DNA of 44,947 bases from an uncultured Methanosarcinales archaeon (GTDB taxonomy: Archaea; Nanobdellota; Nanobdellia; Woesearchaeales; CAZYIM01): positions 1 through 44,947 of the forward strand of contig CAZYIM010000021.1 of the NCBI GenBank assembly GCA_964647565.1. The letters are read 5' to 3'. The notes beneath the pieces were generated by a model, which did no database searches, had not been told where the DNA came from, and saw nothing but the letters and a program-made list of their open reading frames with translations. Position numbers and translations under genes: made by a program. Numbering within the stretch: the first letter of the stretch is position 1; every line of letters begins with the position of its first letter. Of this stretch, positions 2,865-42,970 are shown piece by piece.

Positions 2865-3134
2865 ATGATTGTAACCATAATAGGCTTTGCCGGAATGTGC
2901 TGCATCCTTTTTGCCTTTGCAATGAACCAGTTCCATAAGTGGAAAGCAAAAGACCCTATCTACGATGCAGTCAACCTGTTGGGCGGAACATTACTGGTGG
3001 TATATTCCATTCTGATTAAGAGCTATCCCTTCATTGGCCTTAACAGCGTTTGGGTGGTTGTCTCATTTGTAGAACTAATAAGGGATTCTAAAAAGAAAAA
3101 GGAGTCACACCTTAGCCATAAGAGAAAGCTTTAA
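2865..3134 (+). CDS. Small membrane protein (CBU_0592-like)
   Basis: Three hydrophobic helices; IG..G...IL.AF, Y...NL.G..LL..YS and PFI.LN.VW pattern. Confidence 0.7.
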   Translation: MIVTIIGFAGMCCILFAFAMNQFHKWKAKDPIYDAVNLLGGTLLVVYSILIKSYPFIGLNSVWVVVSFVELIRDSKKKKESHLSHKRKL

Positions 3135-4264: not shown

Positions 4265-4355
4265 GATCACTTTACCTTGTTTCAGTTTGAGACTTTAAAA
4301 CGTCTCTAACTTCTCAGAAACTTTGTTTCAGAGAGTTCTCAGCCTCGTTTTTTTT

Positions 4356-4811: not shown

Positions 4812-4926
4812 TGTAAGAGCATGGTAATACCACACTCATTTTAAATATTTCCATTAATAAGTAGTGATCTTCCAGTCAAAACATTTATTAAGTTGTTTTT
4901 AGCATCTTGGATTGAGGTGTTTATTT

Positions 4927-5112
4927 ATGGAAGATGATGCTCTATGTCCATTATTCAAGGAAATCTGCAAGAAAAAGCAATGCGCCTGGTATATCGAAAA
5001 ATACAAGGACCCAAACTCTGATACTGAAGAGCTGATCGGCCAATGCGCAGTCTATTGGACCAGCCAATGGATTGAAGACGTAGCAGTCAGCACGTCTGAG
5101 ATGGAGAAGTAA
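4927..5112 (+). CDS. Small Cys-rich (putative metal-binding) protein
   Basis: GAGGTG SD; CPL...C...CAWY...CA pattern. Confidence 0.7.
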   Translation: MEDDALCPLFKEICKKKQCAWYIEKYKDPNSDTEELIGQCAVYWTSQWIEDVAVSTSEMEK

Positions 5113-5113
5113 T

Positions 5114-6121: not shown

Positions 6122-6241
6122 CTTCAATCTTAATTATAGTGACTTTTTAAATTTTCCTCATTCCTTTTGGTTTTTTAATTTCAAAAACTTCATTCAGGTT
6201 TTCGAAACTTATATATAGAAACTAAACTGTCAAAAATAACC

Positions 6242-7492: not shown

Positions 7493-7504
7493 AGGTTTTA
7501 GCTA

Positions 7505-23034: not shown

Positions 23035-26000
23035 GTGACCATGACCGAAGAAAATAAAACATCACAGATGTGCAATTCCAAGACAATTGGTCTGGCTAAT
23101 AAGAAGTATTTTAACAAGCCAGGAGTCATGCACATCCTTATTCTTTTCCTGATATTTCTTTCATTGATAAATGTGGTGAGTGCACTGGACCCATGGGAGC
23201 TAAAAAAGGCGCATATCGGCGTCATAATTGATCCTGGGCACGGCATGGATTCTGCCTCGGATCCAAACAGCAGTAATAAAACAACTAAAACTAGATATAA
23301 TGTTGGAGGTGCAGTTGGTAGAAGGAATATCCAAGAATGTGATTTTAATACGAACGGCCTTTGGTCAAGACCAGACGGCGGAAAACACTGGTTTAAGAAT
23401 CATACTAACGGCTACATGCGCAGGAATGAAACAGATATTGATTTTGTAGAGCCTGAAGCAAACACATTCTATTCGTTGGCCTTTAAATTGTTACTGGTGG
23501 ACGCCGGAATATTTACAGACTATACCCGTGACTTGGATATAACTTTCAATGAGCTGCGAAACAGCCCATCGCTTGGCATTGGCATGAATAATACAGAGGT
23601 TGATTGGAGGCATGAAGCTCCCAGATATTTTCGCACTAGAAACGATTCAGAACCCTTTAATTTATCACAATCATGGTTTGGTTCTGTTGTAGACAGCCGT
23701 AGAGAATTAGCTAATTGGTATCAAAAGGATAGTCAATACAATATCTCGAAAGATTTTATTTTGATAAGCGTTCACACAGATGCTGACGCTCCTGCAGCTA
23801 CAGGAACCACTGCAATGATTTCAAAGAGGACCAGGGTATGGGGCAACAATGGGGTACCTCCTATAGGAGTTGCCTTAATGCACAACAAGCGGGCTTTGGG
23901 TGAGTATTTGCATAATAGCACTATTGGTGCGATAAGGAGAAGCAATATTGAACCCAACTGGGTCAGTAGACATCCTCTTGCAAATATCAACACTGTTTAT
24001 GAAGGTGAGGGTGGTTATGGCGGGGTGGGGTTGCTGCGCTCACCTATTGTCCCTTCTGCGCTTGTTGAGGTTGGTTTTGCAACAAATTGTGCAAGGGACC
24101 GTCGCACAATATTGAATCTATCAAGACAAGATTCCATTGATACAGTTGGACAAGGTATTTTTGATAGTGTAAAAAGATATTTTAATGCGTCTGTGAACAG
24201 TGTGAACTTATCTGGAAACGGAAGCGATTACTTTCCACTTGGACAGAGATTCTTATATGTTAGAGGAACAGGCTATCCCAGGCCCATACCTTTTAATACA
24301 AATCGAATCGTGAAAATCCATGTCACCAAACATCTAGACTATAATCAAAGCGACAGTGATGTTCCTAATTGGACCAGACTAGTGAAATTCAAAGATGTTG
24401 ATTTTTTTAACATTTCTGCTAAAGTCAATAGGAGCGGGCATTTAATTAACAATACAGGCAATAATGTTGGGATCGTGTCTGTGTTTAAACCTCCCTTTCC
24501 AGGCAAGTTTGACGTTGTTGTTTCTCTTTATAATCATACTCATTTCCATTATGTGGATGCACTAGACAACATGTCTCTAGATGATGAAGTGAAGAGTGTA
24601 CCAGGCTTTGTTGTTCCAGGAGTCTTCCCTGTAAATTCGTCAGAGAACATAACAAAAACCTTCTTTGGCTGGAATAAAGTTAGTTCTGATCTTTATTTCA
24701 AAGCCATGCATCTGCCAAAGGAAACCAATGTTACTGTTTATGTTGTTAAATATGATCCGACCAGAAACTGGAGAGGAAATCCAATCAATCTTGATCAGAT
24801 TAAGATAGTCAATATAACAATTACGACTGATGAAAATGGATCTATAAATACAACTTTGATCTGGAACATTTCCAACTCCAGTGACATGAATGTCTTTAAC
24901 AATAGCGGAAGATTCAATATTGTAGTAGATATAGACAAAGACAAACATTACAACAAATCCCGGGATGTTCTGGATGTTAATGAGATCGGTGTCCTAAAAA
25001 CTGCTAACGGCTTGACACAATTAAATTATAACACTGCTAATGGAAGGCATGCAACTCTGGAATTAAAGGCATTTCTTCATGAGTGGGTGAATTCCAGCCT
25101 TGAAATCAATACAACTTTTGATGCTCTTACAGGCGTAATGCTAAGAAAATATTGGAATTTGAGGAAAATACCTCCTGCAGCCACTAACACATTCGGACCA
25201 AAAACAAATTCCAGAGTGCAATACGATGCAAATATCAGCTTCTTTATTGCTGTTGCAGCAACAGTGAATAAGACCAACAATGTAACCAGATATTTTCCCT
25301 ATACTCGCCAGATTAATGCGACTGCCATGGGCCTTCCGCCGTCTATTGCCGGAGCAAATTCCTTTAATGTCAATGTGACTGCTTATGTTGTGCCCTACAA
25401 CGTCTCTGATGACTGGTCAAAGAATAAAAACTTAGATGATATAAATGTTGCAGTAAAAGAGAAGATTATACTTGACAAAGATGGCGGTTTTACGCAAAAA
25501 CTGATCTGGGAGCCAAAGAATGATGTACAGAAGATCCTGGACAGTAACGGAACCTTTAACCTTGTTGTGGATGTTGACCTGGATAAGCATTATAATGTCA
25601 GCAGGGATATTGTTGACATTGTCGCTTCTGACAATAAATATGGATTCAGGGTCGGTTTTGCAAACACATCTGACGAAAACGGCGTCTTTGATGGTACGCT
25701 TCCGTATGACAGCCCTGTTTATGTAAAAGGAGTCGGCTTTCCAAAAAGAAATGTACACTTATTTGTTGTCAGTAAAGGCGAATGGGCTGAGAATGAGGAT
25801 ATAACAGATCCTATCAATAAGGTTGAGAATGTAGAAATCAAGGCTGATGGCAGGCTGGATAATACCAAGATATGGAATACGCCTGTTAAAGATAATTGTA
25901 ACATAAAATATTATATCATTGTTGATGTGAACCAGGACAATAAATTCAACAAAGAATGGGATGTAATTAGCAGTTTTAACATAATACCGAAGGGTCCGGA

Positions 26001-26586
26001 TGAGGTGTGTGCTGTGGCTAATGCGGCAGATTATGGGGTCCCTCAGAAAAGGAAACGTATTTTTATTATAGGTTCAAAAAAAGGATTTAAAACAAATGAA
26101 CCCAAAAAAACACATTGTCACCCTGATAAATGTGATATTACTGGCCTTCAACCCTATGTTGGTGTTGGTAAAGTAATATCTAAATTTGATAAACCTGAAT
26201 TTTTTGAAAAAGAAGAAATTACTAAAAAAGGAACATATGGACCAGACCTAAAAGAAGTTCCACCTGGAAAAAATTATATTGCTTTAACTGCAAGAAATAA
26301 TTATCCAAATCCTAAATTCGTTGCTGGAAAAAGGTTTTGGAGTTTTTTGCTTAAACTACATCCAGAATTACCTTCTTGGACAATAGCTGCACAACCCGGC
26401 CCGTGGGTAGGACCATTTCATTGGACTTCACGAAGACTAAGAGTGCCTGAGATTGCAGCAATACAAACTTTTCCAGAAAAGTATATCTTTGTTGGTAGCA
26501 GAAGATCTATCCAAAAGCAGATTGGCAACGCAGTCCCACCATTATTAGCACAAAGAATGATTGAATTTTTAAAGGATAACCTATGA
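23035..26586 (+). CDS. Secreted N-acetylmuramoyl-L-alanine amidase (Amidase_3) with beta-rich repeats and PG-binding-like insert, fused in frame to the C-terminal half of a C5 DNA methyltransferase
   Basis: Signal/TM; IIDPGHG, E, ISVHTDA, PSALVEVGF. About four repeats ending FN(I/L)VVD.D.D..(Y/F)N...D. From about 26014: NAADYGVPQKRKR, RRLRVPE, QTFP, KQIGNAVPP. Confidence 0.8.
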   Translation: MTMTEENKTSQMCNSKTIGLANKKYFNKPGVMHILILFLIFLSLINVVSALDPWELKKAHIGVIIDPGHGMDSASDPNSSNKTTKTRYNVGGAVGRRNIQECDFNTNGLWSRPDGGKHWFKNHTNGYMRRNETDIDFVEPEANTFYSLAFKLLLVDAGIFTDYTRDLDITFNELRNSPSLGIGMNNTEVDWRHEAPRYFRTRNDSEPFNLSQSWFGSVVDSRRELANWYQKDSQYNISKDFILISVHTDADAPAATGTTAMISKRTRVWGNNGVPPIGVALMHNKRALGEYLHNSTIGAIRRSNIEPNWVSRHPLANINTVYEGEGGYGGVGLLRSPIVPSALVEVGFATNCARDRRTILNLSRQDSIDTVGQGIFDSVKRYFNASVNSVNLSGNGSDYFPLGQRFLYVRGTGYPRPIPFNTNRIVKIHVTKHLDYNQSDSDVPNWTRLVKFKDVDFFNISAKVNRSGHLINNTGNNVGIVSVFKPPFPGKFDVVVSLYNHTHFHYVDALDNMSLDDEVKSVPGFVVPGVFPVNSSENITKTFFGWNKVSSDLYFKAMHLPKETNVTVYVVKYDPTRNWRGNPINLDQIKIVNITITTDENGSINTTLIWNISNSSDMNVFNNSGRFNIVVDIDKDKHYNKSRDVLDVNEIGVLKTANGLTQLNYNTANGRHATLELKAFLHEWVNSSLEINTTFDALTGVMLRKYWNLRKIPPAATNTFGPKTNSRVQYDANISFFIAVAATVNKTNNVTRYFPYTRQINATAMGLPPSIAGANSFNVNVTAYVVPYNVSDDWSKNKNLDDINVAVKEKIILDKDGGFTQKLIWEPKNDVQKILDSNGTFNLVVDVDLDKHYNVSRDIVDIVASDNKYGFRVGFANTSDENGVFDGTLPYDSPVYVKGVGFPKRNVHLFVVSKGEWAENEDITDPINKVENVEIKADGRLDNTKIWNTPVKDNCNIKYYIIVDVNQDNKFNKEWDVISSFNIIPKGPDEVCAVANAADYGVPQKRKRIFIIGSKKGFKTNEPKKTHCHPDKCDITGLQPYVGVGKVISKFDKPEFFEKEEITKKGTYGPDLKEVPPGKNYIALTARNNYPNPKFVAGKRFWSFLLKLHPELPSWTIAAQPGPWVGPFHWTSRRLRVPEIAAIQTFPEKYIFVGSRRSIQKQIGNAVPPLLAQRMIEFLKDNL

Positions 26587-27647
26587 CAAAAAGAAAACCA
26601 ACTGTAATAAGTATATTCTCAGGTGCGGGTGGTATTGATATCGGCTTTGAGAAAGCAGGATTTAGAATTATTTATTCTACTGATTATTGGGAACCTGCAT
26701 GTAATAGTATGAAAAAGAACAAGATTAGTAATCTTGTTGAATGTAAAGATATTAGAGATGTTGATTTTAAAGCTATTTTGAAAAAAAACAAGCTTAATGA
26801 AATAGATTGCGTAATTGGTGGACCCCCCTGCCCAGCATATTCTAAATCCAGGTTTTATCTTACTCAGAAAAAGAGAGCCTTAGATGATGAAAATGCGTTT
26901 ACACTTTTTGAATACTTTCGAGCCATAAAAGAATTAAAACCTAAAGTCTTTTTTTTTGAGAATGTTCACGGATTTGTTTTTAAACCTCATCTAGCAGCAT
27001 TTAATTTCTTAATGGAAGAATCTGAAAAACTAGGATATGAAATAACGTACAAGGTAGTAAACGCTGCTAACTATGGAGTTCCACAAATCAGAGAGCGATT
27101 CATATGCGTCGGCGTAAAAAAAGGTCAAAGAAAATTTAATTTCCCAGATGAGACTCATTTTAACCCTGATAAAAAAGGAACATTGAACACATTCACAGGT
27201 AAAAAATCTTGGGTGACCTGTAAGGACGTCATTGGAGACTTGGATGTTATTTTACCTGAAGACAAGAATATGCAAGCAGGATCAAAACACAAAAATCTGC
27301 TCAAACAAATTCCTCCCGGACAAAACTATCTATTTTTCACAAAAGAAAGAGGTCATCCTAATCCAAAATTTAAATGGCGTTCTCGATATTGGTCGTTTTT
27401 ATTAAAGCTTTCTCCCGAAAAACCATCTTGGACTATACAAGCAAGTCATTCAAATAATATGGGTCCGTTTCATTGGAAAAACAGATTCTTAAGAATTGCT
27501 GAAATAAAGAGACTACAAACATTTCCTGATGATTATCAGTTTGTAGGAGATTATAGAACACAATGGAGACAAATTGGCAATGCGGTGCCACCATTATTAG
27601 TCCAAAAAATTTCAGAAGCAATAAAAGTCCAATTATTCAGTAATTAA
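26583..27647 (+). CDS. dcm: DNA (cytosine-5)-methyltransferase
   Basis: FSGAGG (motif I), GGPPC (IV), FFFENV (VI), YGVPQ.RER (VIII), RQIGNAVPP (X). Confidence 0.96.
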   Translation: MTKRKPTVISIFSGAGGIDIGFEKAGFRIIYSTDYWEPACNSMKKNKISNLVECKDIRDVDFKAILKKNKLNEIDCVIGGPPCPAYSKSRFYLTQKKRALDDENAFTLFEYFRAIKELKPKVFFFENVHGFVFKPHLAAFNFLMEESEKLGYEITYKVVNAANYGVPQIRERFICVGVKKGQRKFNFPDETHFNPDKKGTLNTFTGKKSWVTCKDVIGDLDVILPEDKNMQAGSKHKNLLKQIPPGQNYLFFTKERGHPNPKFKWRSRYWSFLLKLSPEKPSWTIQASHSNNMGPFHWKNRFLRIAEIKRLQTFPDDYQFVGDYRTQWRQIGNAVPPLLVQKISEAIKVQLFSN

Positions 27648-27834
27648 CTGAACAGTAACATTTATTTTTTAACACATCTCCGATTTTAAATCGCTTATAC
27701 GTATTGCTATGTCTTCTAGACTGGGACAACAATCTCCGTTCGTGATATTATATCAATATAATCGACTTTGTTATAACTCTGCATTAAGAAAGTAGAATAT
27801 AAACTTTTTCCATGTTTTTCCGGAGGTTTTCCGT

Positions 27835-28092
27835 CTAATCAAATAAACCCCTGCTATCAAATCCATGCTCTTTGATCCTTTTATTGATGGCCTGTGTTAT
27901 TTTAACTTTCATATTCTCAGAAAGTTGCCTTTGATTTTTAATAGCTCTGTTTATCACAGATCTATCACAGCCAGCAGCATTTGCAAGCTCATACTGACCT
28001 ATACTAAGCATTTCTAGGATTAGTTCAAGCTTTTTATTATCTGACATTTTAAGAGCCTTATAGAGTTGTTTAGCGTTGACTGGCAAAGTCAT
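27835..28092 (-). CDS. XRE/Cro-like helix-turn-helix protein
   Basis: IGQYELANAAGCDRSVINRAIKNQR. Confidence 0.75.
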   Translation of the reverse strand: MTLPVNAKQLYKALKMSDNKKLELILEMLSIGQYELANAAGCDRSVINRAIKNQRQLSENMKVKITQAINKRIKEHGFDSRGLFD

Positions 28093-28269: not shown

Positions 28270-28469
28270 TGGCCAACATCGAAAAAAAGAGATCCAAATA
28301 AGTAAGTAACGCAACTCATATAAAAATCTATCTGAACGGTTTATTGACGAGAAACCGTCGAAAAATTAAAATATTTATTCGTTTTTTATAGGAGTAATTT
28401 TACATATAAAAATAAAGAATATGAGGATAAAAATAACTTTTTGCCCCACATAATTGAAGTAAAAATACT

Positions 28470-28484
28470 ATGCCCCGAGCGGGA
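28470..28484 (-). repeat. att-like copy of tRNA-Glu 3' end (copy 3)
   Basis: ATGCCCCGAGCGGGA, identical to 33855-33869. Confidence 0.85.
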
Positions 28485-28518
28485 TGGGAAAAAAGTTTAT
28501 AATCTGAAGCATAACTGA

Positions 28519-28932
28519 TTATGAGAAATAAGCATCTTTTATTTCCTTGATAAAGTCCTTAATCTCGGCTAAGACAGCTTCAGCTTCCTTAGCAGATATA
28601 TCTTTACCATAATAATTAATTGCGTTCCTAAGTTTTCTAAAGTTGTCAAAGTTTGATCCGAGCTTTGATGCGTTAAGAATCTCTTTAAGGAAAGCACAAT
28701 AGCACTCATGATTGTAGACCTTAAAGCCTTTTCGTATGGCTAATGCTTCTAAAAGTTCCCTTAATGCATCATAGGACAGGCTTATTTTCGAGGCAGCTGT
28801 TGTATCATCAAGTGGTAGTCTTTCTTGAGTCTTAAACTTGTTTTCAGAGGATTTAAGCAATGCAGATATCAGGTTTTTATCAGTCTTTGCCTGCTTGACA
28901 AGTTTTTTTCGTTTGCATGTTGTCCAATCCAT
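28519..28932 (-). CDS. HEPN-domain protein (toxin of MNT-HEPN pair)
   Basis: Y...RE..EAL...G.K..NHEC; R.LRN.I.YYG (Rx4-6 motif with H replaced by Y); directly downstream of MNT. Confidence 0.8.
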   Translation of the reverse strand: MDWTTCKRKKLVKQAKTDKNLISALLKSSENKFKTQERLPLDDTTAASKISLSYDALRELLEALAIRKGFKVYNHECYCAFLKEILNASKLGSNFDNFRKLRNAINYYGKDISAKEAEAVLAEIKDFIKEIKDAYFS

Positions 28933-28934
28933 GC

Positions 28935-29444
28935 TTACCAACCCCCTACCAGTATCAACCCATCCATGATATTCCTTATGAGCTCTTTGGGAACATCTTC
29001 TTTCTTTGTGAAAACAAATTGCTGGATGGTGCGTCCAAGCTTTTTCTCAAATTTTTCTAGATTAATCTTCTTTTCTGAAGCAGAGAAAATGGCCAGGTCA
29101 ATATCGGAATTCTCGTTTATCTCGGCCTTTGAGAATGAGCCGAAAAGGATTACTAGTGGCTTAACCAACTCTTCTCCAAAGAAATCCGTTAGGCCTGCCT
29201 TTTCAAATATGTAAAGCCAGTATGCTCTCGAGAGGCTGATGAAGAGCTTGTCGTCCTTGTTGGCTGAAAAGTATAGATAGTTCTTTTCAATTTCTCTGAC
29301 CAGTAATCCTTCTTTGTGCAATCTCGAGAGAAATTTAGATGCTGAAGGAGGACTTATCTTGGACAGTCTTGCATATTCTCTAACATTATACCTTTTATAA
29401 TTATCCTCAAAAAAAGGTTTTAAAGTGTTAAATATTTTTAACAT
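28935..29444 (-). CDS. wHTH + minimal nucleotidyltransferase (MNT antitoxin)
   Basis: VREYAR...SPPSASK.L HTH; ILFGSFSK.E...SDIDLAI. Confidence 0.9.
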   Translation of the reverse strand: MLKIFNTLKPFFEDNYKRYNVREYARLSKISPPSASKFLSRLHKEGLLVREIEKNYLYFSANKDDKLFISLSRAYWLYIFEKAGLTDFFGEELVKPLVILFGSFSKAEINENSDIDLAIFSASEKKINLEKFEKKLGRTIQQFVFTKKEDVPKELIRNIMDGLILVGGW

Positions 29445-29471
29445 GTGTTAATATAAATTAACATCTGTTTA
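29438..29471. promoter_or_regulatory. Tandem palindromic operators over MNT start
   Basis: TTAACATGTGTTAA and TTAACATCTGTTTA, 20 bp apart. Confidence 0.6.
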
Positions 29472-29494
29472 AATATTTTTCTGTTTTAGAAAAG

Positions 29495-29539
29495 ATGCCC
29501 TGAGCGGGGCGTGGACTAAAAATTGATAAAACAGGGCAT
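29495..29539 (-). repeat. att-like copy of tRNA-Glu 3' end with inverted end (copy 2)
   Basis: ATGCCCTGAGCGGG (one mismatch to the tRNA) ... CAGGGCAT; 8-bp inverted repeat. Confidence 0.75.
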
Positions 29540-29614
29540 AAAATCCAAGTTTAGTTAATTTATAAAGCCTTTCAGTCAGTTTAAACTAACAGTACAATCT
29601 GAATATTTGTTTAT

Positions 29615-29640
29615 GTTTCCATGTTGAGCAACATAGAAAC
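29615..29640. promoter_or_regulatory. ArsR operator candidate
   Basis: GTTTCcATGTTG-AG-CAACATaGAAAC immediately before a TTTATATA box. Confidence 0.65.
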
Positions 29641-29671
29641 CTTTATATATTTGATATTTTAAGAAACAATC

Positions 29672-29941
29672 ATGCCTGATGAAAAACTAGCAAGAGCGAT
29701 CCGATCAAGAGTCAGAAGGGATATCCTTCATATTCTTGCCAAGAAACCAAAACAACCGGTCCATCTGATAGCTGATGAGCTTGACATAACAGAATCTTCT
29801 GCGTCAAAACACCTGAAATTATTGCATGACCTGGGAATACTGGTATTTAATGACGAGGGGAAGGAAAGATTCTATTCATTAAAGATCGATGAGATAAAAG
29901 ATTTGCTTACAGCCTATGACTTAGTCATAAAAAAACTTTAA
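29672..29941 (+). CDS. ArsR/SmtB-family regulator
   Basis: R..IL..L...V..IA..L....S..S.HL..L...G wHTH. Confidence 0.9.
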   Translation: MPDEKLARAIRSRVRRDILHILAKKPKQPVHLIADELDITESSASKHLKLLHDLGILVFNDEGKERFYSLKIDEIKDLLTAYDLVIKKL

Positions 29942-29958
29942 GTAGATTTATCAAGAAA

Positions 29959-32685
29959 ATGGTTGATTCGGAAATCAATTGGTATTCAAAGACAGTCAGC
30001 GAGACCTTGCTAGAATTAGATACATCTTCAGAAGGTTTGAGTTCTCAAGAGGCTGAAGCAAGATTGAGATTAAACGGGCCGAACTCCCTTGCACATGATG
30101 AAAAAAACAAGACCCTGAAGCTGTTATTCAGAAATTTCAATTCCATACTTATATACATTCTTTTAGTAAGTGCGATCATATCCCTTCTTTCCAGTCATAT
30201 GATTGAGTTAATTGTGATATTGATAATCATATTCTTTACAGGCATTTTTGGATTTATCCAAGAGTATCATGCCGGAAAAGCACTAAATGCACTATCAAAA
30301 ATCGCAGTCAAGAATGTTGAAATAATGCGTGACGGAAAGAAAGTCGAGATTGACAAAGAAGAAATTGTTATCGGAGATATCGTGCTTCTGAAAAGAGGCA
30401 TGATCGTACCAGCAGATATTCGAATAATGGAGTCCAAAGGTTTGTCTGCTGATGAATCAATACTAACAGGAGAGTCAGTCCAGAAATACAAGCGTTCTGA
30501 AGAGATAAACCAAGAAGATATTCTGATAAGTGATCAGGAAGACATACTCTTTGCAGGGACAAGCATCACAAACGGAACTGGGCTTGGAGTGGTTGTTGCA
30601 ACAGGCCTGGAATCAGAGATAGGAAAAATCTCTTTAAGACTTAAAAAGATAGGATTCCAGAAAAGCCCAATTCAAAATCAGATTGATGGTATGAGCAAAA
30701 GGATAGGTATTTTTGTGTTCTTTGCTTGCACTCTATTATTTCTTATATTAATTGGGAAGGATTTCGGACTTTTTCAGTCTCTAATGCTTGTTAGTGCTAT
30801 GGCTGTTTCAGGGATTCCTGAAAGCTTCCCATTGGCTCTGACCATGAGCCTTTCTAATGGCGTAAAAAGAATGGCGCGGACCAATGCTATCGTAAAGGAC
30901 TTGAGCTCGGTTGAGACCCTGGGAACAACAACTGTAATCTGTACAGACAAGACAGGCACCTTGACTGAGAACAAGATGCGTGTTGAACGTATTTTCTTTT
31001 CAGATGGCAAGGAAGTCCAGGTAAAAGGGCATGATTACAATCCAGAGAATGAATTTATTGTCAATGGGAGCGAAACAGACGCAAGATTCTTTGAGAAATA
31101 CCCGGAATTCTTCAATACATGTGTATTGTGCAATAACGCAAATCTTGCCCTTGAAGGGAATGAATGGAAGCTTTCAGGAGAACCTACTGAAGGCTCAATA
31201 CTGTCCTTGGCAAAAAGCACCAACTATAATGATCATCAGTTAAGGAAGGATAATAAACAGATCAAGGAGGTGGCATTTGATCCATTTGAAAAATTCATGA
31301 TAAGTGTCAATGAACATGAAAACGAGAAAACTGCATATCTAAAAGGGGCTTATGAGCAAGTAATAAGAAAATGCAAGTACATTAGGACTTCAAAAGGAAT
31401 AAAAAAACTGACCGCATCCCATATCAAAACTATTGAAAACCAAGCGCACAAATACAGCGATCTGACTTTAAGGATGCTGGCTCTTGCAACAAAGAGCATC
31501 AGGAAAATTGATGAAAGCCTTGAAACAGGGTTTATATTTGAAGGGATGGTAGGAATCGACGATCCTATTCGTAAAGAGGCTTTCAAGGCAATTGAGGAGT
31601 GTCAGAGTGCGAATGTAAAAGTCATAATGATTACAGGCGATCATAAGAAAACTGCCGAGAGCGTCGGAAGAAAGCTAGGGATTGTTACATCTGAAAAAGA
31701 TATGATCCTTGAGGGCCATGAGCTTGACAAGATGACGGATGAAGACCTGGATAAAGTTATACACCAAGTCGCTATATTCTCAAGAACAACACCAGACCAC
31801 AAGTTCAGAATAGTAAACTCACTCCAAAGAAAAGGAGAGATAGTTGCTATGACAGGCGATGGTGTGAATGATGCCCCTTCTTTGAAAAAAGCAGATATTG
31901 GCGTCAGCATGGGCAAGTCAGGTACAGATGTAGCAAGAGAAGCCTCAAACATGATACTAACAGATGACCATTTCTCAACCATAGTCAATGCTATCAGGGA
32001 AGGGAGAACCATCTACAGCAATATCAGGCGTTTCATATACTATCTGCTCACAGGTAACGCAACAGAGGTTCTGCTTATATTCTTAGCTGTCCTGATAGGG
32101 ATAATCACTCCATTGACCGCTTTAATGATCCTATTCATTAACCTTATAACCAGCACATTTCCCGCACTTGCGTTAAGCATAGAGAAGACCCATCTGAAAG
32201 TCATGAAGCAGAAACCCCGTAATCCTGATGAAAAACTATTATCTAACTATATTCTTTTAAAGATATTTGTGTTGGTGCCATTGATATTATTAGGTACTTT
32301 GGCTTTATTCTTATGGGAGTTAAACATAACAGGAGGCGAAATTGAGAAGGCAAGAACCCTTGCCTTTGCAGCACTGATAATATTTGAACTTATGCATGCA
32401 TTCAATGCACGAAATCTGCATACAACAATCTTCAGCAAAGACTTCTTCTCTAACAAGTATATATTCATCGCTGTATTTATATCACTATCCCTGACAATCG
32501 TGGCAATTTATACAAACCTAGGTCAAAGCATATTCCAGACAACTGCCTTGAATCTTACAGAATGGTTGATAATTATCGGAGTCAGCAGTTTAGTCATAGT
32601 TGTTTCTGAAACAATAAAGGCATTGATCAAGAGCGAATTCAAAGAACAGAAAAGGCTTAAAGGCCTGGAAATAAGCGTTGAATAG
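29959..32685 (+). CDS. P-type II cation-transporting ATPase (Ca2+/Na+-type)
   Basis: LTGES, IPESFP, DKTGTLT, KGA, ITGD, TGDGVNDAPSLK. Confidence 0.96.
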   Translation: MVDSEINWYSKTVSETLLELDTSSEGLSSQEAEARLRLNGPNSLAHDEKNKTLKLLFRNFNSILIYILLVSAIISLLSSHMIELIVILIIIFFTGIFGFIQEYHAGKALNALSKIAVKNVEIMRDGKKVEIDKEEIVIGDIVLLKRGMIVPADIRIMESKGLSADESILTGESVQKYKRSEEINQEDILISDQEDILFAGTSITNGTGLGVVVATGLESEIGKISLRLKKIGFQKSPIQNQIDGMSKRIGIFVFFACTLLFLILIGKDFGLFQSLMLVSAMAVSGIPESFPLALTMSLSNGVKRMARTNAIVKDLSSVETLGTTTVICTDKTGTLTENKMRVERIFFSDGKEVQVKGHDYNPENEFIVNGSETDARFFEKYPEFFNTCVLCNNANLALEGNEWKLSGEPTEGSILSLAKSTNYNDHQLRKDNKQIKEVAFDPFEKFMISVNEHENEKTAYLKGAYEQVIRKCKYIRTSKGIKKLTASHIKTIENQAHKYSDLTLRMLALATKSIRKIDESLETGFIFEGMVGIDDPIRKEAFKAIEECQSANVKVIMITGDHKKTAESVGRKLGIVTSEKDMILEGHELDKMTDEDLDKVIHQVAIFSRTTPDHKFRIVNSLQRKGEIVAMTGDGVNDAPSLKKADIGVSMGKSGTDVAREASNMILTDDHFSTIVNAIREGRTIYSNIRRFIYYLLTGNATEVLLIFLAVLIGIITPLTALMILFINLITSTFPALALSIEKTHLKVMKQKPRNPDEKLLSNYILLKIFVLVPLILLGTLALFLWELNITGGEIEKARTLAFAALIIFELMHAFNARNLHTTIFSKDFFSNKYIFIAVFISLSLTIVAIYTNLGQSIFQTTALNLTEWLIIIGVSSLVIVVSETIKALIKSEFKEQKRLKGLEISVE

Positions 32686-32784
32686 CTGAATAAGATGATC
32701 AAAATGGACTGGAACAATTTCATGTAGTGATGAAGAAGATTGTAACGATAATCTGTAATATAGTTAATATACTAGAAAATAAAG

Positions 32785-32828
32785 TGCCCCGAGCGGACAT
32801 AGTACCTTTTTGTGATATTTGATGGGCA
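32785..32828 (-). repeat. att-like copy of tRNA-Glu 3' end with inverted end (copy 1)
   Basis: TGCCCCGAGCGG identical to 33856-33867; site ends in GGGCA. Confidence 0.8.
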
Positions 32829-32834
32829 AACACC

Positions 32835-33791
32835 CTATTTTTTATGTATTTCTCGGAATTTTGAAATAAATTCTTGAGGAGATTCATTATTGATGTAGAA
32901 AATGCTGCTATCTTTTTCTGCTTCATAAAGAACAAGACCATATTTTGAAGTCATCTTTCGTAGCCAATAATGGTTTATTACTGAAAATCCCTCAAAATTC
33001 AGTTCTAGCTCATCACCCACATCATCAAAATACTTATCTAACTTTGTACCTTTGAATAAAGCCATAGTAGAATCAGACAGAAATTGATAAATCTCATTTT
33101 CTAAACCCAATTGTTCAAATGTCATTTGATCTCCTATAATATCTTTTGCGAACTTTTCTCTAAGACCATATATTCCTGAATCATTTTGTTTTAATATAGT
33201 GGTTGTTTGAACTGTTGGAACAAGAAGATATGATTTTGACGGGGTGACAACAATTTCACAAGCACGATTTCCTTGGGGCCTATTCAAATAAGTGTCAAAC
33301 AAAAGGGAATAAAGATCCTTGCCCATCGCCATCGGTGACTCAGTAGGGTGTGTATGAATCCCTATGGTGGCGCGTAATTCCCCTTCATTTTCAGGATCAT
33401 CAGGAAATAAGAATGTATCGCAAGCAACCCTCACAAGATTTCCTGAGTCATCCAATTCAGGAAGTTCAGATCTTTTTATATTGCCTGCTCGCCAATCTGA
33501 CGCATGTTCAGATAAGAATAATTTCCTATAAAACTCCATAAATTTCCATCTTTGTTCTGGATCTTTTTTCAAATCATAATTCTCAAGAAATTTTAGAGAT
33601 AACCTGTCTTTTAAGGAAGGATTCCGAAGGAACCGTTCCCATCTTTTTCTCAATCCAGAAAGGGAATTCGAAATTATAGAATCCGCTAAGTTTAATTCCT
33701 TAGGTAAAGCTCCTTTTTCAGAGTATTTATGATGCTTCACAATATCTTCTATAGCTGATAAAAATTGTATTGAAGTAAAACTATTTGACAT
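32835..33791 (-). CDS. Hypothetical protein with JAB/JAMM-like HxH-x10-D motif
   Basis: IGIHTHPTESPMAMGKDL followed by EIVVTP..Y beta strands; own TTTATAAATA box. Confidence 0.55.
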   Translation of the reverse strand: MSNSFTSIQFLSAIEDIVKHHKYSEKGALPKELNLADSIISNSLSGLRKRWERFLRNPSLKDRLSLKFLENYDLKKDPEQRWKFMEFYRKLFLSEHASDWRAGNIKRSELPELDDSGNLVRVACDTFLFPDDPENEGELRATIGIHTHPTESPMAMGKDLYSLLFDTYLNRPQGNRACEIVVTPSKSYLLVPTVQTTTILKQNDSGIYGLREKFAKDIIGDQMTFEQLGLENEIYQFLSDSTMALFKGTKLDKYFDDVGDELELNFEGFSVINHYWLRKMTSKYGLVLYEAEKDSSIFYINNESPQEFISKFREIHKK

Positions 33792-33855
33792 ATTGAATTA
33801 GGGTAAAATGTATTTATAAAGTTTTCGTTTATTAACCATTTAGAAGTAACAAAAA

Positions 33856-33993
33856 TGCCCCGAGCGGGAATTTCGTCTTGAGACAAAAGCCTTGTTGACT
33901 TTCTCATCAAGTATTCGAACCCACGTCATTGCCTTTCTCTAACCTTTTGGTTGCGAGAGGGCAATATGATTGGCCGGACTACACCATCGGGGC
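33856..33993 (-). tRNA. trnE: tRNA-Glu(CTC) with two introns: 37/38 (33935-33953, 19 nt) and 59/60 (33870-33913, 44 nt)
   Basis: Exons GCCCCGATGGTGTAGTCCGGCCAATCATATTGCCCTCTCG | AGGCAATGACGTGGGTTCGAA | TCCCGCTCGGGGCA fold into a cloverleaf. BHB helices are CTCT/AGAG and TTCG/CGAA. Confidence 0.93.
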
Positions 33994-34016
33994 ATATTTG
34001 ATTGTTAGTTTTTTTT

Positions 34017-34093
34017 TGTGTGGGCTTGAGTGTTAGCGAAACCCACTTCGCTGTCGATGGGCGAAAGCATCGGACTTTGCACCATCGGGGCAT
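34017..34093 (-). other. Structured element beginning with a copy of the tRNA-Glu 5' end
   Basis: ATGCCCCGATGGTG...AGTCCG matches the tRNA-Glu start; hairpins CGATGG/CCATCG, AGCGAA/TTCGCT and GTGGGTTT/AAGCCCAC. Confidence 0.55.
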
Positions 34094-34109
34094 CAAAAGT
34101 CCTATGATA

Positions 34110-34298
34110 TTACATGACATTGTGATCTCTGGCAAGGGCTTCTACAGACCGGTCAAAGGTCGCTTCTCCTTCTTTTGAGAAGAAACATCCAGGAACCTCT
34201 CCATTAGCCCTGTGAAATTCTACACACTCTGAGCATTTCCCGTGTCTTGAACAGCCAGGATATGTACAGGTGCATTCAATACTGTTATCGCATGTCAT
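34110..34298 (-). CDS. Small Cys-rich protein (DUF6485-like)
   Basis: C.CTY..C.RHG.C..CV..HR...EVP.CFF....E.TFDRS; ATG 3 nt after the tRNA-Lys end. Confidence 0.8.
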   Translation of the reverse strand: MTCDNSIECTCTYPGCSRHGKCSECVEFHRANGEVPGCFFSKEGEATFDRSVEALARDHNVM

Positions 34299-34301
34299 GG
34301 A

Positions 34302-34438
34302 TGGGCTCAGAGGGACATTCGCATCATGAGTTTGCACTCGATGACTTTCGAACCCCCGACCCCTTGGTTACTTTTAAAACAAAGTTAAACTTTGTTTATT
34401 AAGAGCCAAGTGCTCTAGCCAGGCTGAGCTATGAGCCC
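34302..34438 (-). tRNA. trnK: tRNA-Lys(CTT) with two introns: 37/38 (34369-34399, 31 nt) and 59/60 (34316-34346, 31 nt)
   Basis: Exons GGGCTCATAGCTCAGCCTGGCTAGAGCACTTGGCTCTTA | ACCAAGGGGTCGGGGGTTCGAA | TCCCTCTGAGCCCA; BHB-like junctions; TTTAAATA box upstream. Confidence 0.93.
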
Positions 34439-34479
34439 ATTTTAACTGTGAAACTTATATCATATTTAAAAGCTTTTCC

Positions 34480-35031
34480 TTAGAAAAACAACTTTTCAAT
34501 GTCTTCTAGCAACTGTACAAACCTATCATACCCTCTTTGTGCTCCAAAGTGATCTGCATCCTTAACCATGATTAGTTCAGAACCTAAGTTTGCAGCAAGT
34601 TCTTCCCCTTTCTTAACAGGAACATATGGATCGTCTGTAGATTGGTAAATAACAAACTTAGAACAGTTCTCCTTAATCTTAGCCCAGTCAAAATCCCTTT
34701 CAGCAAGAGTCTTATTTACAGCATCATAATCTATGTGCAGCGGACCCGTAAATCCTGCAACAAGGAAGCAACATTTAGGTTTCACATCAAGAAGCTCAAT
34801 AACATCCAATACAAATGCGCATCCAACACTGTGTGCAATAATGATAGAGTCATCTAACTTATTATTATATATAGAGATCACTTTCAGCCAGTTGTCTAGA
34901 TTCTGTTGTTCATAACCAGGAAATTGCGGAACATAAACCTCATGACCGAGCTTCTCCAACTTTGCTTTCAACCATTGGAACCAGTGTTCATCAGGATTTC
35001 CATTGGTCCCATGTATGATAAAGGTGTTCAT
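34480..35031 (-). CDS. RBBP9/YdeN-family alpha/beta hydrolase
   Basis: IIHG...HWF.WL, AHSVG, S.DDPYVP, ADHF. Confidence 0.92.
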   Translation of the reverse strand: MNTFIIHGTNGNPDEHWFQWLKAKLEKLGHEVYVPQFPGYEQQNLDNWLKVISIYNNKLDDSIIIAHSVGCAFVLDVIELLDVKPKCCFLVAGFTGPLHIDYDAVNKTLAERDFDWAKIKENCSKFVIYQSTDDPYVPVKKGEELAANLGSELIMVKDADHFGAQRGYDRFVQLLEDIEKLFF

Positions 35032-35071
35032 AGAAGTAAATTAAAAAAAAGAAATATAAAAATTTATTTGT

Positions 35072-35764
35072 TTAGAAGCTGTATTCCATGATTACACCGG
35101 CGTAGAGCTCATCCTGTATGTTTCTTTTGTCTAGCGACTTGGAGAATGAGATGGCAGGTGTTACACTAAGATTGCCGAAATTAATTGGGATTTTGACATT
35201 CAGTTCTGCATGGCTAAATCCGCTGTTTTCCCGGAAATAGTGGTGGTTATATCCTAGCTTTGCACTTATAGATAATGGGAACTTCTCGAAGTCATGGTCT
35301 GCTGAAATTTCTCCATATACTCCATCTCCTTCTTTGAAGTCGTAAACAATACTCATGCTCGGACTCAATAGGGTATCGAGAGAAACCGCTACATAAACTT
35401 CCTGGCTTTTTGCATTGATATCGGGGAAGGTCAGGTATGCATAACCTGCAGATACTGACACGTTCTCGCTCACTAGCATTGTATAGTCCGCAATGATGTC
35501 AGCTTCATTTATTTCTTTTGTGTCGGTCTTATAACTTCCAAAGCCTATGACTGTCAAGTTTTTGTATGTACCACTTACAGTTGGCTGCAATATTGGTTTC
35601 TCTGAGAAGGTCAGACCTCTGAACATGTGTTTGCTCATTGCATCTACCCGCGTACAGAATTCCATCTGGGATTTTGCTTCTTCTTTTTCCTGACTGATTC
35701 CGGGTCTAGCAATAGCTAATCCTCCAAGTAGGATTGCAGTCATTATGGTTTTCATTAGTTTCAT
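35072..35764 (-). CDS. TorF/TIGR02001-like outer-membrane beta-barrel protein
   Basis: Signal peptide; S...FRG......P.LQ, E.D...Y, SQEVY; alternating amphipathic strands; terminal Y-S-F. Confidence 0.7.
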   Translation of the reverse strand: MKLMKTIMTAILLGGLAIARPGISQEKEEAKSQMEFCTRVDAMSKHMFRGLTFSEKPILQPTVSGTYKNLTVIGFGSYKTDTKEINEADIIADYTMLVSENVSVSAGYAYLTFPDINAKSQEVYVAVSLDTLLSPSMSIVYDFKEGDGVYGEISADHDFEKFPLSISAKLGYNHHYFRENSGFSHAELNVKIPINFGNLSVTPAISFSKSLDKRNIQDELYAGVIMEYSF

Positions 35765-35887
35765 TTTTTCACCTGTTTTGTTTTTACTTACTAGTAGTAC
35801 ATTATCTATTCATTATATATAATTTATCTCCCCTGTACGGGGTGTATAATAGAAAGATTTTTATATAATAAAGACATTAATAGCTGA

Positions 35888-36634
35888 ATGACAGAAAATC
35901 CCTTATATGATCTACTAAAGATAGGCCTGACTGAAGGTGAGGCGAAGGTGTACATTGCAATGATAGAGCTGGGTTCATCCACAGTTGGCCCGATAGTAAA
36001 GAAATCAGGAGTGGCCTACTCGAATGTTTATGATATCCTAAACAGGCTTATGGATAAAGGCGTAGCTACTTATATATTGAAGAGTAAGACAAAATATTTC
36101 CAAGCAGTATCTCCTTCCAACCTCTTAGTGTATCTGGAAAAAAAAGAAGCTGAACTAAATCAGCAAAAGAAAGCTCTTAAAAAGGCATTACCTCAGTTGG
36201 AGAGCTTGCAGGAATTTAAAGCCAAACAAGAGGCTGAAATATTTGTGGGCAAAAAGGGGTTAAGAGCTGCATATGAGAAACTCTTTACAACTGTAAACAA
36301 AGACGAAGAAGATCTTTTTTTCTATATCTACCATCCTGAATACGGAAAGGAAGCTGACCTTTTTTATTTAAGTATCCAGGAGATCATAAAAAAATTACCA
36401 ATCAGGGGGATCTCAAACACAGAGGGTAGGGAATCTTTGTTTGCACAGTCAGTTGATTTTATCAGATATAGATTTGTTGATTTTCCCATTCCAGGCAATC
36501 TTGAGGTGTGTGGTGATAAGACGCTGTTTGTGTCCTGGGAAAAGCCAACCATCGGAGTACTCATTACATCCAAGAGCATCGCAGATAACCTGCGTAACTA
36601 TTTCGATACTGTTTGGGTTATTGCCAAAGAATAG
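35888..36634 (+). CDS. TrmB-family transcriptional regulator
   Basis: L.KIGLT.GEAKVY, S.VY.IL..L..KG, EIF.G..G, YFD..W. Confidence 0.9.
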   Translation: MTENPLYDLLKIGLTEGEAKVYIAMIELGSSTVGPIVKKSGVAYSNVYDILNRLMDKGVATYILKSKTKYFQAVSPSNLLVYLEKKEAELNQQKKALKKALPQLESLQEFKAKQEAEIFVGKKGLRAAYEKLFTTVNKDEEDLFFYIYHPEYGKEADLFYLSIQEIIKKLPIRGISNTEGRESLFAQSVDFIRYRFVDFPIPGNLEVCGDKTLFVSWEKPTIGVLITSKSIADNLRNYFDTVWVIAKE

Positions 36635-41631: not shown

Positions 41632-42005
41632 TTTATTTTACCTCTCATAGTTTTTTTTTCAAGTGTTACTGATCCGTCTCGGATATCTGTTAAATAGGGG
41701 GTTTTTGGATCTATGTCCTCTAAAGATCTTATTTTATACCTGAATTTACCTTCATACTTGATTCGCCCATCGTCAAGTTCTATCTTTTTATATTCCTCGC
41801 CAGCTATCTTCTCTATCTCAACTACATCTCCTTTAGTGGGGATCTGATGTTCATCTATCACATAGCCCTGCTCTGTTTCGCTAAATCCGATTGGAGTTTC
41901 AGGCGCATCCCTGATCCCGTCATAAAGCACTGCACCCAAGCCGCCTAACATAATGACTATTGAGAGTGTGCATCCGATTTTTCTGATGTTTTTTGATAGT
42001 TTCAT
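41628..42005 (-). CDS. Hypothetical membrane-anchored protein
   Basis: N-terminal TM; coupled to the downstream gene. Confidence 0.7.
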   Translation of the reverse strand: MKLSKNIRKIGCTLSIVIMLGGLGAVLYDGIRDAPETPIGFSETEQGYVIDEHQIPTKGDVVEIEKIAGEEYKKIELDDGRIKYEGKFRYKIRSLEDIDPKTPYLTDIRDGSVTLEKKTMRGKIK

Positions 42006-42062
42006 TTGTTTCACATCTTTTATTACTATATAATAATAACTTTTCAAATATTAATATCTTTC

Positions 42063-42089
42063 TGATATTATTGATATCATTGATATTAA
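42063..42089. promoter_or_regulatory. Three tandem 9-bp repeats (TGATAT core) in divergon
   Basis: TGATATTAT-TGATATCAT-TGATATTAA. Confidence 0.45.
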
Positions 42090-42130
42090 AATCGAAATAT
42101 TTAAATAGTATTAAAGCTATTATAACAATC

Positions 42131-42970
42131 ATGAAACGCAAACTGATCAAACAGGGCGGAGGAGGCTTGACCTTCTATGTGCCCAAGAAATGGACAGACA
42201 AGCAGAACCTTAAGGCTGGAGACGAACTTAACATCCAAGAATCGGACAACGAACTGCATATATCTGCCCAAGACAAGACCAAGCAGCTCAAAGAACTTAC
42301 TGTTAAAATCGCCAAAGAAAACAAAAACAGGATAAGAACAATAATCTCTTCTGCGTACAGACGGGGTTATGATCAGATATATCTGGTTACAGAGCATGAT
42401 ATGTCCCTAGTTGAGATAAATCATATTGTTGATACACTCCTTGGCTTTGTGGTCACAGAGCAGACAGAGAAGCGTATTGTCATCAAGAATATCATGGCAG
42501 ACAACTTTGAGGATACAGACGCTATAATCAACAAATTGTTCATAACCATCAAATTCTTCATGCAGGCTGTCATAGACTATATCGAGTCAGGTGGTAAAGA
42601 TTCGGAGTTAATAGAGCTTAGCAAGTCTATAATCAAATTGAGGGATTATAGCCAGAGAATGATACATATCACAGAACATGGCGACGATAGATCCTATGAA
42701 TATCATACACTCGTATTCGTTGCTGAGAAGCTCGCAGGCAACTTCAAGCAGTTAATTCGTAATAAGCCCAAGAACAAGAAAGATTGCTTGAAAGAGCTGG
42801 ATCTTGTCTATGATTACTTTTCTACTCTCTTTGAGGCATATCTCAAAAGAAAAATTGAGTCAGTCATAAACATAAATAAAGAGCTGAACAAGAAAACAAA
42901 AGAGAACGATTGTGTAATGTTAGAAAACCTCTTCAGCATTTCTTCAAGACTGATCAGCATCCTGATCTAG
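42131..42970 (+). CDS. AbrB/MazE + PhoU-like regulator
   Basis: MKRKLIKQG...YVPKKW...L..GDEL; AYRRGYD, LLGF, DY..R, EKLA. Paralog of 836..1708. Confidence 0.85.
   Translation: MKRKLIKQGGGGLTFYVPKKWTDKQNLKAGDELNIQESDNELHISAQDKTKQLKELTVKIAKENKNRIRTIISSAYRRGYDQIYLVTEHDMSLVEINHIVDTLLGFVVTEQTEKRIVIKNIMADNFEDTDAIINKLFITIKFFMQAVIDYIESGGKDSELIELSKSIIKLRDYSQRMIHITEHGDDRSYEYHTLVFVAEKLAGNFKQLIRNKPKNKKDCLKELDLVYDYFSTLFEAYLKRKIESVININKELNKKTKENDCVMLENLFSISSRLISILI

Follow-up and report, generated by a model that had tools for sequence, protein, structure and literature searches.

Copies of a tRNA-Glu 3′ exon delimit a tandem array of integrase-less gene units in a Woesearchaeota-type archaeon

Cis-mobilizable elements (CIMEs) and the tandem accretions of the ICESt1/ICESt3 type in streptococci comprise units that are flanked by att sites, carry no recombination genes and depend on a related integrase-bearing element. 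In archaeal chromosomes, 'suicidal' integration of the SSV type, and gene capture with it, is said to have been described by She et al. in 2001. Here we analyze a locus that shares some features with each in an uncultured archaeon of the Woesearchaeales (GenBank assembly GCA_964647565.1, contig CAZYIM010000021.1). The whole 44,947-nt stretch, hereafter the window, is the complete contig C21 of this assembly (G000), which holds 2,676,741 bases in 86 contigs and is 86.9% complete; other contigs (C), genomes (G) and comparison loci (L) are likewise cited by number. Behind a tRNA-Glu(CUC) gene in the window, three further copies of the 3′ end of that gene delimit three small gene units, A, B and C (Table 1). 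The copies are very probably attachment-site scars of a tRNA-targeting tyrosine-integrase family found in this archaeal order. More tentatively, we take the array to be a tandem stack of integrase-less modules, arriving as small modules or as a pre-stacked composite, on which an integrase acted in trans.

Tandem integration at one tRNA is noted in extracts of the review 'Archaeal tyrosine recombinases' (PMC8371274), which add that integrated elements are often integrase-less, presumably by loss. Partial tRNA copies that arise from integration are described for Thermococcaceae in an excerpt of PMC9897764, and an excerpt of PMC3293823 describes a 1.8-kb recombinase-bearing insert in Caldiarchaeum, lying between a tRNA fragment and its gene. 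Tycheposons of Prochlorococcus, according to an extract of 10.1101/2020.12.28.424599, stack at tRNAs in such a way that earlier arrivals are displaced inward and remnants stay behind. 'Suicidal' integration and gene capture in archaeal chromosomes are also covered in an excerpt of Badel et al. 2020 (PMC7253208).

The array resembles tRNA-integrating elements and islands in that an intact tRNA stands at one end, its 3′ part recurs as direct repeats on the far side and several inserts are present. It differs from them in that its units measure 1.0-3.3 kb, hold one gene or operon each and have no integrase inside, in that the repeat is just 12-15 nt long with a tRNA intron exactly at its left edge, and in its Woesearchaeota-type host; our literature searches on DPANN or archaeal tRNA-linked elements found no such arrays or elements in archaea of this type. 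Like CIMEs, the units are flanked by attachment sites and encode nothing for recombination or transfer; unlike CIMEs, they have no helper element beside them, an archaeal host and no conjugation context, and they are much smaller. Tycheposons, as far as the extract describes them, offer a parallel in repeated integration at one tRNA, in partial tRNAs and degenerate remnants and in plug-in cassette cargo, but are defined by an integrase and replication modules of their own, none of which occurs in the array. The likeness to integrons lies in tandem small units that lack a recombinase and include toxin-antitoxin-type cargo. In contrast to integrons, no IntI or attI lies beside the array (no tyrosine recombinase is present on the contig), the anchor is a tRNA gene, the units share no attC-like folded ends and they seem to have promoters of their own. 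SSV-type integration likewise traps archaeal elements behind a tRNA without a working integrase, but does so by splitting the integrase into two end fragments, of which a six-frame search of the contig found none. The kind of arrangement is already known; what sets this case somewhat apart is that it recurs behind tRNA-Glu in several lineages, that each unit is no larger than one operon and that the repeat adjoins a T-loop intron.

Standard tools did not reveal the tRNA gene at the head of the array. ARAGORN reported no tRNA in the window, and none on the contig even with introns allowed, and Rfam gave no match in the window at gathering score or at E-values up to 10. Both miss the gene because it has two introns, one after the anticodon and one in the T loop, whose borders carry an uncertainty of 1-2 nt. 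It was recovered by a scan of our own, which looked for pairing between acceptor strands, for a T arm and for the landmarks of a D arm; this heuristic returned 82 candidates, about 33 of them plausible loci. Once both introns had been removed by script, ARAGORN called a 75-nt tRNA-Glu(ctc) with a normal cloverleaf. The precursor has a predicted fold of -54.3 kcal/mol (z = -4.9) with an acceptor stem of 7 bp, in which the T-loop intron forms a 4-bp UUCG/CGAA helix with bulges on opposite strands, resembling the bulge-helix-bulge that serves as substrate of the splicing endonuclease. The repeated piece corresponds to the 3′ exon, that is, the last base of the T loop, the 3′ strand of the T stem, the 3′ strand of the acceptor stem and the discriminator; a sequence-only reading of the window had correctly assigned it to the tRNA-Glu 3′ end from the raw letters. 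A second tRNA-Glu gene of the assembly was located on C48.

Beside the array, at 34302-34438 (-), lies a tRNA-Lys(CUU) gene that ARAGORN and Rfam also miss; on inspection it has an intron after the anticodon and a T-loop intron at the same position as that of tRNA-Glu. Most recognizable tRNA genes of the assembly contain a T-loop intron of about 30-45 nt, often alongside a canonical intron, and ARAGORN with introns allowed finds just 18 tRNAs in the 2.68 Mb. The T-loop introns end in like words (GAAAGT, GAGAGT), a similarity which suggests that they may form one intron family.

A pattern search for the 12-mer TGCCCCGAGCGG at up to one mismatch gave four matches in the window, all on the + strand: three exact (28471, 32785 and 33856) and one with a single mismatch (29496). 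The chance mean is 0.06, and none of 100 dinucleotide-preserving shuffles reached four copies. Search and shuffles thus agree with the sequence-only reading, which had seen the tRNA-Glu 3′ end recur in one orientation at these places. Nor is the 12-mer common genome-wide. Across the assembly the same search yielded six matches, and the array locus holds all three exact ones together with one of the three that carry a mismatch. Many 12-mers of this assembly recur at least three times within 12 kb, most of them in runs of overlapping words that we assume to be repeated genes, whereas at the array locus a single isolated GC-rich word recurs. When 150 nt around each of the four copies were aligned, nothing was conserved outside the core. 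Left of 28470 no further degenerate copy was found at up to three mismatches, and GTGGGGCA at 28442-28449, considered as an extra copy, was dismissed as too short to count. A composition scan showed that the G+C content of the array does not stand out. The view that the copies are tRNA 3′-end duplicates of the type left by site-specific integration is supported.

One distal copy carries information on its own origin. Copy 3, which differs from the tRNA by a G to A change in the acceptor strand, pairs with an upstream ATGCCCTG at 29532-29539, a mimic of the tRNA 5′ end that bears the compensating C to T change; the resulting helix has 8 bp and a z of -2.7, and such a helix was reached in one of 200 shuffles. 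Because of this compensating change in its 5′ strand, copy 3 looks like an apparent relic of another tRNA-Glu allele and not like a local duplication. It is the only one of the three distal copies to lie in a helix better than shuffles, the flanks of the other two being no better.

That no integrase or transposase is encoded in the window, as had been noted from the letters alone, held up in every search made. A six-frame search of the whole assembly with Phage_integrase at E <= 0.01 gave six matches, none of them on the window contig; Resolvase had no match in the whole genome; and none of the 52 open reading frames (ORFs) scanned with Pfam, out of 98 window ORFs of at least 70 aa, contains a recombinase or transposase domain. 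Small ORFs that cross the repeat copies had no Pfam match. A split integrase across the junction of unit A was considered and rejected, the pieces being out of frame by hand check and without a Pfam match.

Integrases that target tRNA genes are nevertheless present in this genome and in the order. The assembly encodes two intact integrase paralogues, on C22 and C2, of 410-435 aa with a C-terminal zinc ribbon and 60% mutual identity; a third match, on C33, is a truncated member of this family. At E <= 1e-20 the family was found at 13 places in nine of 61 genomes of the order, this genome included, and eight of the 12 loci inspected have a tRNA 3′ end about 60-130 nt ahead of the integrase gene; full elements carry the integrase directly after the tRNA. 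Where the far end of an integrase-bearing element was sought, a direct repeat of 11-13 nt was found (three of three elements). In these elements, from genomes G025, G022 and G056, the repeat runs from the end of the T stem through the acceptor strand to the discriminator, which is the geometry of the array, and the first T-stem base tends to differ, as it does at the window copy at 32785. Because three integrase-bearing elements have this same 11-13-nt geometry, the short core of 12-15 nt is, as far as sequence comparison goes, a signature of the tRNA-targeting integrase family and not an anomaly. Hardly any shorter piece could rebuild a tRNA without an encoded CCA if exchange takes place in the T loop, in keeping with the sublocation preference of such enzymes.

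The element of G025, whose host genome is complete at 0.77 Mb, contains, besides its integrase gene, a NikA-like gene and a restriction-modification pair in which a C5 methylase accompanies a SacI-type endonuclease. It is bordered on both sides by arms of about 50 nt that are inverted repeats of one another, a match reached in none of 300 shuffles. A T-rich, TTTCTAA-like motif after the cores was examined as a link to the integrase loci and set aside as the ordinary T-rich trailer of many tRNA genes. Viral contigs yielded no free attP form in those searched: a 20-nt tRNA end was found in four, in every case within a tRNA gene followed by CCA and read as the tRNA of a bacterial phage, and the G025 integrase, used as single query, had no match among viral contigs.

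Integrase-less units behind tRNA-Glu are not confined to the window. Loci that share the first 28 nt of the tRNA were collected from species-representative genomes (22) and metagenomes (21), giving 31 distinct sequences; the nearest species-representative genomes searched belong to other families of the order and none to the same family. At L038 (with the same arrangement in L051, L055 and L066) a 759-nt interval contains MNT and HepT genes and is closed by an 18-nt repeat that extends three bases into the T loop. L049 has copies of the tRNA-Glu end at 138, 1602 and 2715, bounding intervals of 1464 and 1113 nt, each of which contains a winged helix-turn-helix (wHTH)-MNT gene and a partner, one pair per strand; the pair of the 1113-nt unit shows 31% and 23% identity to the proteins of unit C. 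L062 (identical to L025 and L064) has an interval of about 1.09 kb with a single Fic gene and a degenerate copy at its end. L049 and L062, with 82% identity over the tRNA including its introns, come from different organisms. Yet their distal junctions have a common left arm of about 32 nt, their proximal junctions a common right arm of about 25 nt, and these arms enclose unrelated cargo. Like the G025 element, the Fic unit is furthermore bounded by terminal inverted repeats, in its case of 19 nt, which none of 300 shuffles reached. In 401 genomes of the order, the left-arm pattern had five matches, one of them genuine (in the genome holding L062), and the right-arm pattern matched, in that genome, the known site and chance coding sequences only. 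Taken over four lineages, the cargo of seven small units includes four MNT/HEPN-type pairs and one Fic gene. Comparison with related lineages, the check proposed together with the original observation, did not refute it: the content behind tRNA-Glu differs exactly at such repeats, with MNT-HepT at L038, two wHTH-MNT pairs at L049 and Fic at L062.

The explanation that we tentatively favor combines these elements and units as follows. The tRNA-Glu(CUC) gene would serve as docking site, and recombination in or beside the T loop would rebuild the tRNA 3′ exon from incoming DNA while a second copy of the 3′ exon would be left where the insert ends, away from the tRNA. In this way three inserts would have been stacked in tandem: an orphan gene, ArsR with a P-type ATPase, and an MNT/HEPN-like pair. 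At least some of the units would have come in as small modules without an integrase, or as a composite stacked beforehand, with a full 7-11-kb element of the family providing the integrase in trans. No unit would be self-mobile, because none encodes a recombinase, and in this genome the units now look largely fixed. Repeat formation by an integrase, its action in trans and the order of arrival are what we infer from the arrangement. Arrival in trans is supported by the seven integrase-less units across four lineages, by the lack of integrase debris in intervals that the genes fit tightly, and by the arms and terminal repeats kept around different cargo at L049 and L062. Within the array itself, a 17-nt motif, CAATTTTTAGTCCACGC, at the tRNA-distal end of unit B (29509-29526) has its sole near-identical partner in the assembly on C22, between the tRNA and the intact integrase, and a related word, TTGTCCACG, makes up the terminal inverted repeats of the Fic unit. 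The motif shared with the C22 integrase locus would tie the array to mobile DNA, and the apparently non-local origin of copy 3 would be a second such tie.

Several observations weigh against trans mobilization. At 86.9% completeness the genome shows no integrase specific for tRNA-Glu, its paralogues lying at other tRNAs, and nothing beyond the 12-15-nt core marks a maintained recombination site. The units of the window have no arms or terminal inverted repeats above chance (176, 258 and 267 of 300 shuffles did as well). Downstream of tRNA-Glu, 20 loci together have 87 ORFs, none of which encodes an integrase, and no helper was seen beside a small unit; G024, the 78% complete genome that holds the Fic unit, has no Phage_integrase match. 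The genome has no close relative among those searched, the nearest genomes belonging to other families. The best conserved copy is the outermost (15 of 15 nt), which one-by-one accretion at the tRNA does not predict; it fits better with a stack that was imported, or last used, as a whole. Reads were available from eight runs of two studies covering parts of the locus, as contigs at depths of about 1-6, the runs that hold the locus being contigs at about 4x. No excised, circular or empty form was seen in these 4x contigs, and the four runs compared, all low-depth contigs, showed no joint at any repeat. The two joints listed, 29671-36312 in one run and 29694-29784 in two, have sides of only 21-23 letters and lie away from the repeats; these reads speak neither for nor against mobility.

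The main competitor of trans mobilization is shrinkage in place, in which three full 7-11 kb integrase-bearing elements integrated serially and each lost its integrase and most of its genes, the survivors (a toxin-antitoxin-like pair, an ion pump with its regulator and an orphan gene) being kept by selection or addiction. Since the integrase sits right behind the tRNA in full elements, a single deletion would remove it, and the truncated integrase of 168 aa on C33 is an instance of such decay in this very genome. The units of the window without conserved arms suit this history, as does the cargo of the small units overall, rich in addiction-type modules that resist loss (four MNT/HEPN-type and one Fic of seven). 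The extracts of PMC8371274 ascribe integrase-less archaeal elements presumably to loss and record that tandem integration occurs. Yet none of the six Phage_integrase matches of the six-frame search falls on the contig, the genes fill their intervals to within 33-165 nt of the ends with no pseudogene debris, and random deletions would seldom spare the complete arms of L049 and L062 or the terminal inverted repeats of the Fic unit. We regard shrinkage in place as possible but doubtful, and favor mobilization in trans over it.

The sequence-only reading had gone further and proposed an integron-like accretion platform. In its strong form, a recombinase encoded by the host would take up minimal cassettes one after another at the tRNA, and genes would be acquired regularly by this route. 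Its factual core stands, namely tRNA 3′-end duplicates that bound three integrase-less units on which a recombinase would have to act in trans. Tandem small units without an integrase in four lineages, cargo exchanged at the repeats between related lineages, and the G024 unit with intact arms in a genome where no element integrase was detected all speak for such a platform. The comparison with integrons themselves is not supported, however: no recombinase resides beside the site in the 20 loci examined or on the window contig, the units of the window share no cassette-end structure and appear by eye to have promoters of their own, and the repeats are laid out like those of ordinary mobile elements that carry an integrase of their own. 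We therefore consider a dedicated platform highly unlikely. Less likely still, to the point of being almost negligible, is a role at the RNA level, with the distal copies acting as spare 3′ exons (pieces of split tRNAs) or as tRNA-like processing tags. The copies do match the 3′ exon exactly, archaea have split and multi-intron tRNA genes, and many tRNA genes of this assembly have nearby duplicates of their ends with folded inserts. Against this, the resident tRNA-Glu is complete and a second one exists on C48; in the distal flanks neither the CGAA/TTCG helix nor the bulges of the genuine T-loop intron are found, so that, unlike in split and tri-split tRNA pieces, a bulge-helix-bulge frame is absent upstream of the distal copies; and two of three distal flanks fold no better than shuffles, with mismatches carried by the copies.

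The gene content agrees with the earlier description of three self-contained integrase-less units, with a helix-turn-helix (HTH)/methylase block past the last copy. Each interval is filled by intact genes. By eye, a candidate TATA-like box can be placed for each unit, including one upstream of the unit A gene, and a putative palindrome ahead of the first gene in units B and C, and the units appear to have their own promoters. The protein of unit A has an HTHP...GKD motif and no Pfam, NCBIfam, PADLOC or PDB match. A word search among 5.8 billion clusters returned only the protein itself, and 1.84 billion representatives contained one remote relative (27% identity, 337 aa), which retains the HxH and D of the motif; no relative was found among viral contigs. 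The fold model, built from two sequences, is unusable (mean predicted local distance difference test score, pLDDT, 36.8), and the lead from an atlas is weak (score 0.80, with Prok-JAB on 13% of members). The protein is a near-orphan to which no family can be assigned. The name 'JAB-like' that had been given to it was drawn only from the HxH...D motif, which is indeed there; JAB/MPN metalloproteases are marked by a JAMM fold with an E...HxH...S..D motif.

In unit B, the ATPase has a homologue in G031 with 65-68% DNA identity, around which no tRNA or GC-rich repeat was found; this comparison gives no sign of unit B moving as one unit. In unit C, the MNT domain matches PF18765/PF01909, with an MntA score of 30.3 bits, below the cut-off of 60, and the pair matches both proteins (A and B) of the PADLOC candidate system PDC-M05. 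The HEPN-like partner has no Pfam HEPN match; it has the PDC-M05B match and a weak Csx1/Csm6 HEPN match, and by eye its R-N-A-I-N-Y-Y stretch lacks the His of the Rx4-6H motif that marks the HEPN RNase of type VII MNT/HEPN toxin-antitoxin pairs. Relatives of the MNT/HEPN genes in G005 and G001 have no tRNA-type repeats around them. Past the last copy, the HTH/methylase block could represent a fourth unit, one left unbounded. Its 1183-aa ORF overlaps the start of the complete C5 methylase gene by 4 nt. Proteins of about 300 aa with an AbrB/MazE-like N-terminal domain occur twice in the window, at 836-1729 (-) and 41993-42970 (+), and also within about 1.5 kb downstream of tRNA-Glu in other loci (L030:632-1549 and L034:8133-9053).

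Table 1. Coordinates of the tRNA-Glu array, its units and related features. Positions without a contig number refer to the window.
Feature	Location	Strand	Remarks
tRNA-Glu(CUC) gene	33856..33993	-	138 nt; own scan and ARAGORN after in-silico intron removal
tRNA-Glu exon 1	33993-33955	-	
tRNA-Glu intron 1	33954-33936	-	19 nt, after anticodon
tRNA-Glu exon 2	33935-33914	-	
tRNA-Glu T-loop intron	33913-33870	-	44 nt
tRNA-Glu exon 3	33869-33856	-	14 nt
Repeat copy 1 (attL-type core)	33855..33869	-	tRNA 3′ exon and one base past its end
Repeat copy 2	32785..32796	-	12 nt exact; T where the first C of the T-stem strand would match
Repeat copy 3	29495..29508	-	14 nt, one mismatch (G to A, acceptor strand)
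Repeat copy 4	28470..28484	-	15 nt, equal to copy 1; outermost, best conserved
Unit A	32797..33854	-	about 1.06 kb; one gene
Unit A gene	32835-33791	-	318 aa
Unit B	29509..32784	+	about 3.28 kb; repressor and ATPase
ArsR/SmtB-type repressor	29672-29941	+	unit B
P-type cation ATPase, type IIA-like	29959-32685	+	unit B
Unit C	28485..29494	-	about 1.01 kb; wHTH-MNT and HEPN-like partner
wHTH-nucleotidyltransferase (MNT)	28935-29444	-	unit C
HEPN-like partner	28519-28941	-	unit C
Block past last copy	23035..28092	both	possible fourth unit, unbounded
Cro/HigA-like HTH	27835-28092	-	block past last copy
C5 DNA methylase	26583-27647	+	block past last copy
1183-aa protein	23035-26586	+	Amidase_3-like part and C-terminal half only of a C5 methylase
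Head upstream of tRNA-Glu	33994..34091	-	second copy of the first 12 nt of the tRNA; two hairpins; likely tRNA promoter region
Intact integrase	G000 C22:42252-43749		90 nt after intron-bearing tRNA; contig ends 0.9 kb beyond
Truncated integrase	G000 C33:26823-27473		168-aa N-terminal fragment; 83 nt after a tRNA
Intact integrase	G000 C2:124630-126186		330 nt after orphan tRNA-end-like word
G025 element	L093 (G025:C1:436000-455800), oriented 273-7571		7,224 nt at tRNA-Glu(CUC); far repeat 12/13
G022 element			11,209 nt; integrase-bearing
G056 element			10,830 nt; integrase-bearing
Other heads in G000	C2:23209-23279; C6:12126-12363; C8:9926-10027; C19:49917-50019; C31:10863-10957; C36:18321-18422; C26:36250-36384		two units on C6
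Head in L062			upstream of tRNA-Glu
Tails in G000	C1:106928-106987; C4:66234-66303; C22:32677-32770; C22:21797-21966; C48:14455-14521; C63:5547-5610		91-nt unit twice at C22:21797-21966

Shorter duplications of tRNA gene ends are widespread in the assembly. Immediately upstream of tRNA-Glu, outside the array, is another gene-end duplication, which we call a head: at eight tRNA genes of the assembly, the first 12-25 nt of the gene are copied 71-135 nt upstream. Heads are laid out as the 5′ copy, a conserved hairpin (CAAAC..GTTTGAT), a second, T-arm-like hairpin and an A-rich spacer; their 5′ part is specific to the tRNA, and the remainder belongs to a shared family. Tails are the counterpart downstream, where the last 13-23 nt of the tRNA are repeated after 60-101 nt at six tRNA genes of the assembly, and non-coding tails of 82-101 nt also lie behind tRNA-Glu in L023, L030, L037, L042 and L053. 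Four of the five tails of the assembly that were folded form a minihelix of a partial 5′ acceptor strand, the T stem and an internal hairpin, with a T-run after the second copy. The internal hairpin is AGCAAC..GTTGCT in three of the tails, and both hairpins of the heads recur, oppositely oriented, in the L023 tail. Heads and tails together were found at 14 of the roughly 33 recognizable tRNA genes.

One could extend the docking-site idea to all of these, with tRNA gene ends as general docking sites of one recombination system whose products would range from structured, non-coding inserts of about 50-120 nt to 3-kb gene cassettes, and with T-loop introns as domesticated scars. The thought that such introns might be insertion scars comes from the coincidence of the intron 3′ border with the left edge of the attachment core. 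We hold this wider reading to be unlikely. If it were true, non-canonical tRNA introns of DPANN-type archaea would in part stem from integrase traffic.

Few mobile elements have been described for small-genome archaea of this type. The 12-15-nt scar ties together an integrase family, its 7-11-kb elements and integrase-less units of one operon each. Copies of the tRNA-Glu 3′ exon offer a simple handle on recently acquired genes in Woesearchaeota-type genomes, and the genes located through them are mostly toxin-antitoxin or defense-type modules. With its attachment core abutting a T-loop intron, the locus also provides a test bed for the old idea of an interplay between tRNA introns and integrating elements.

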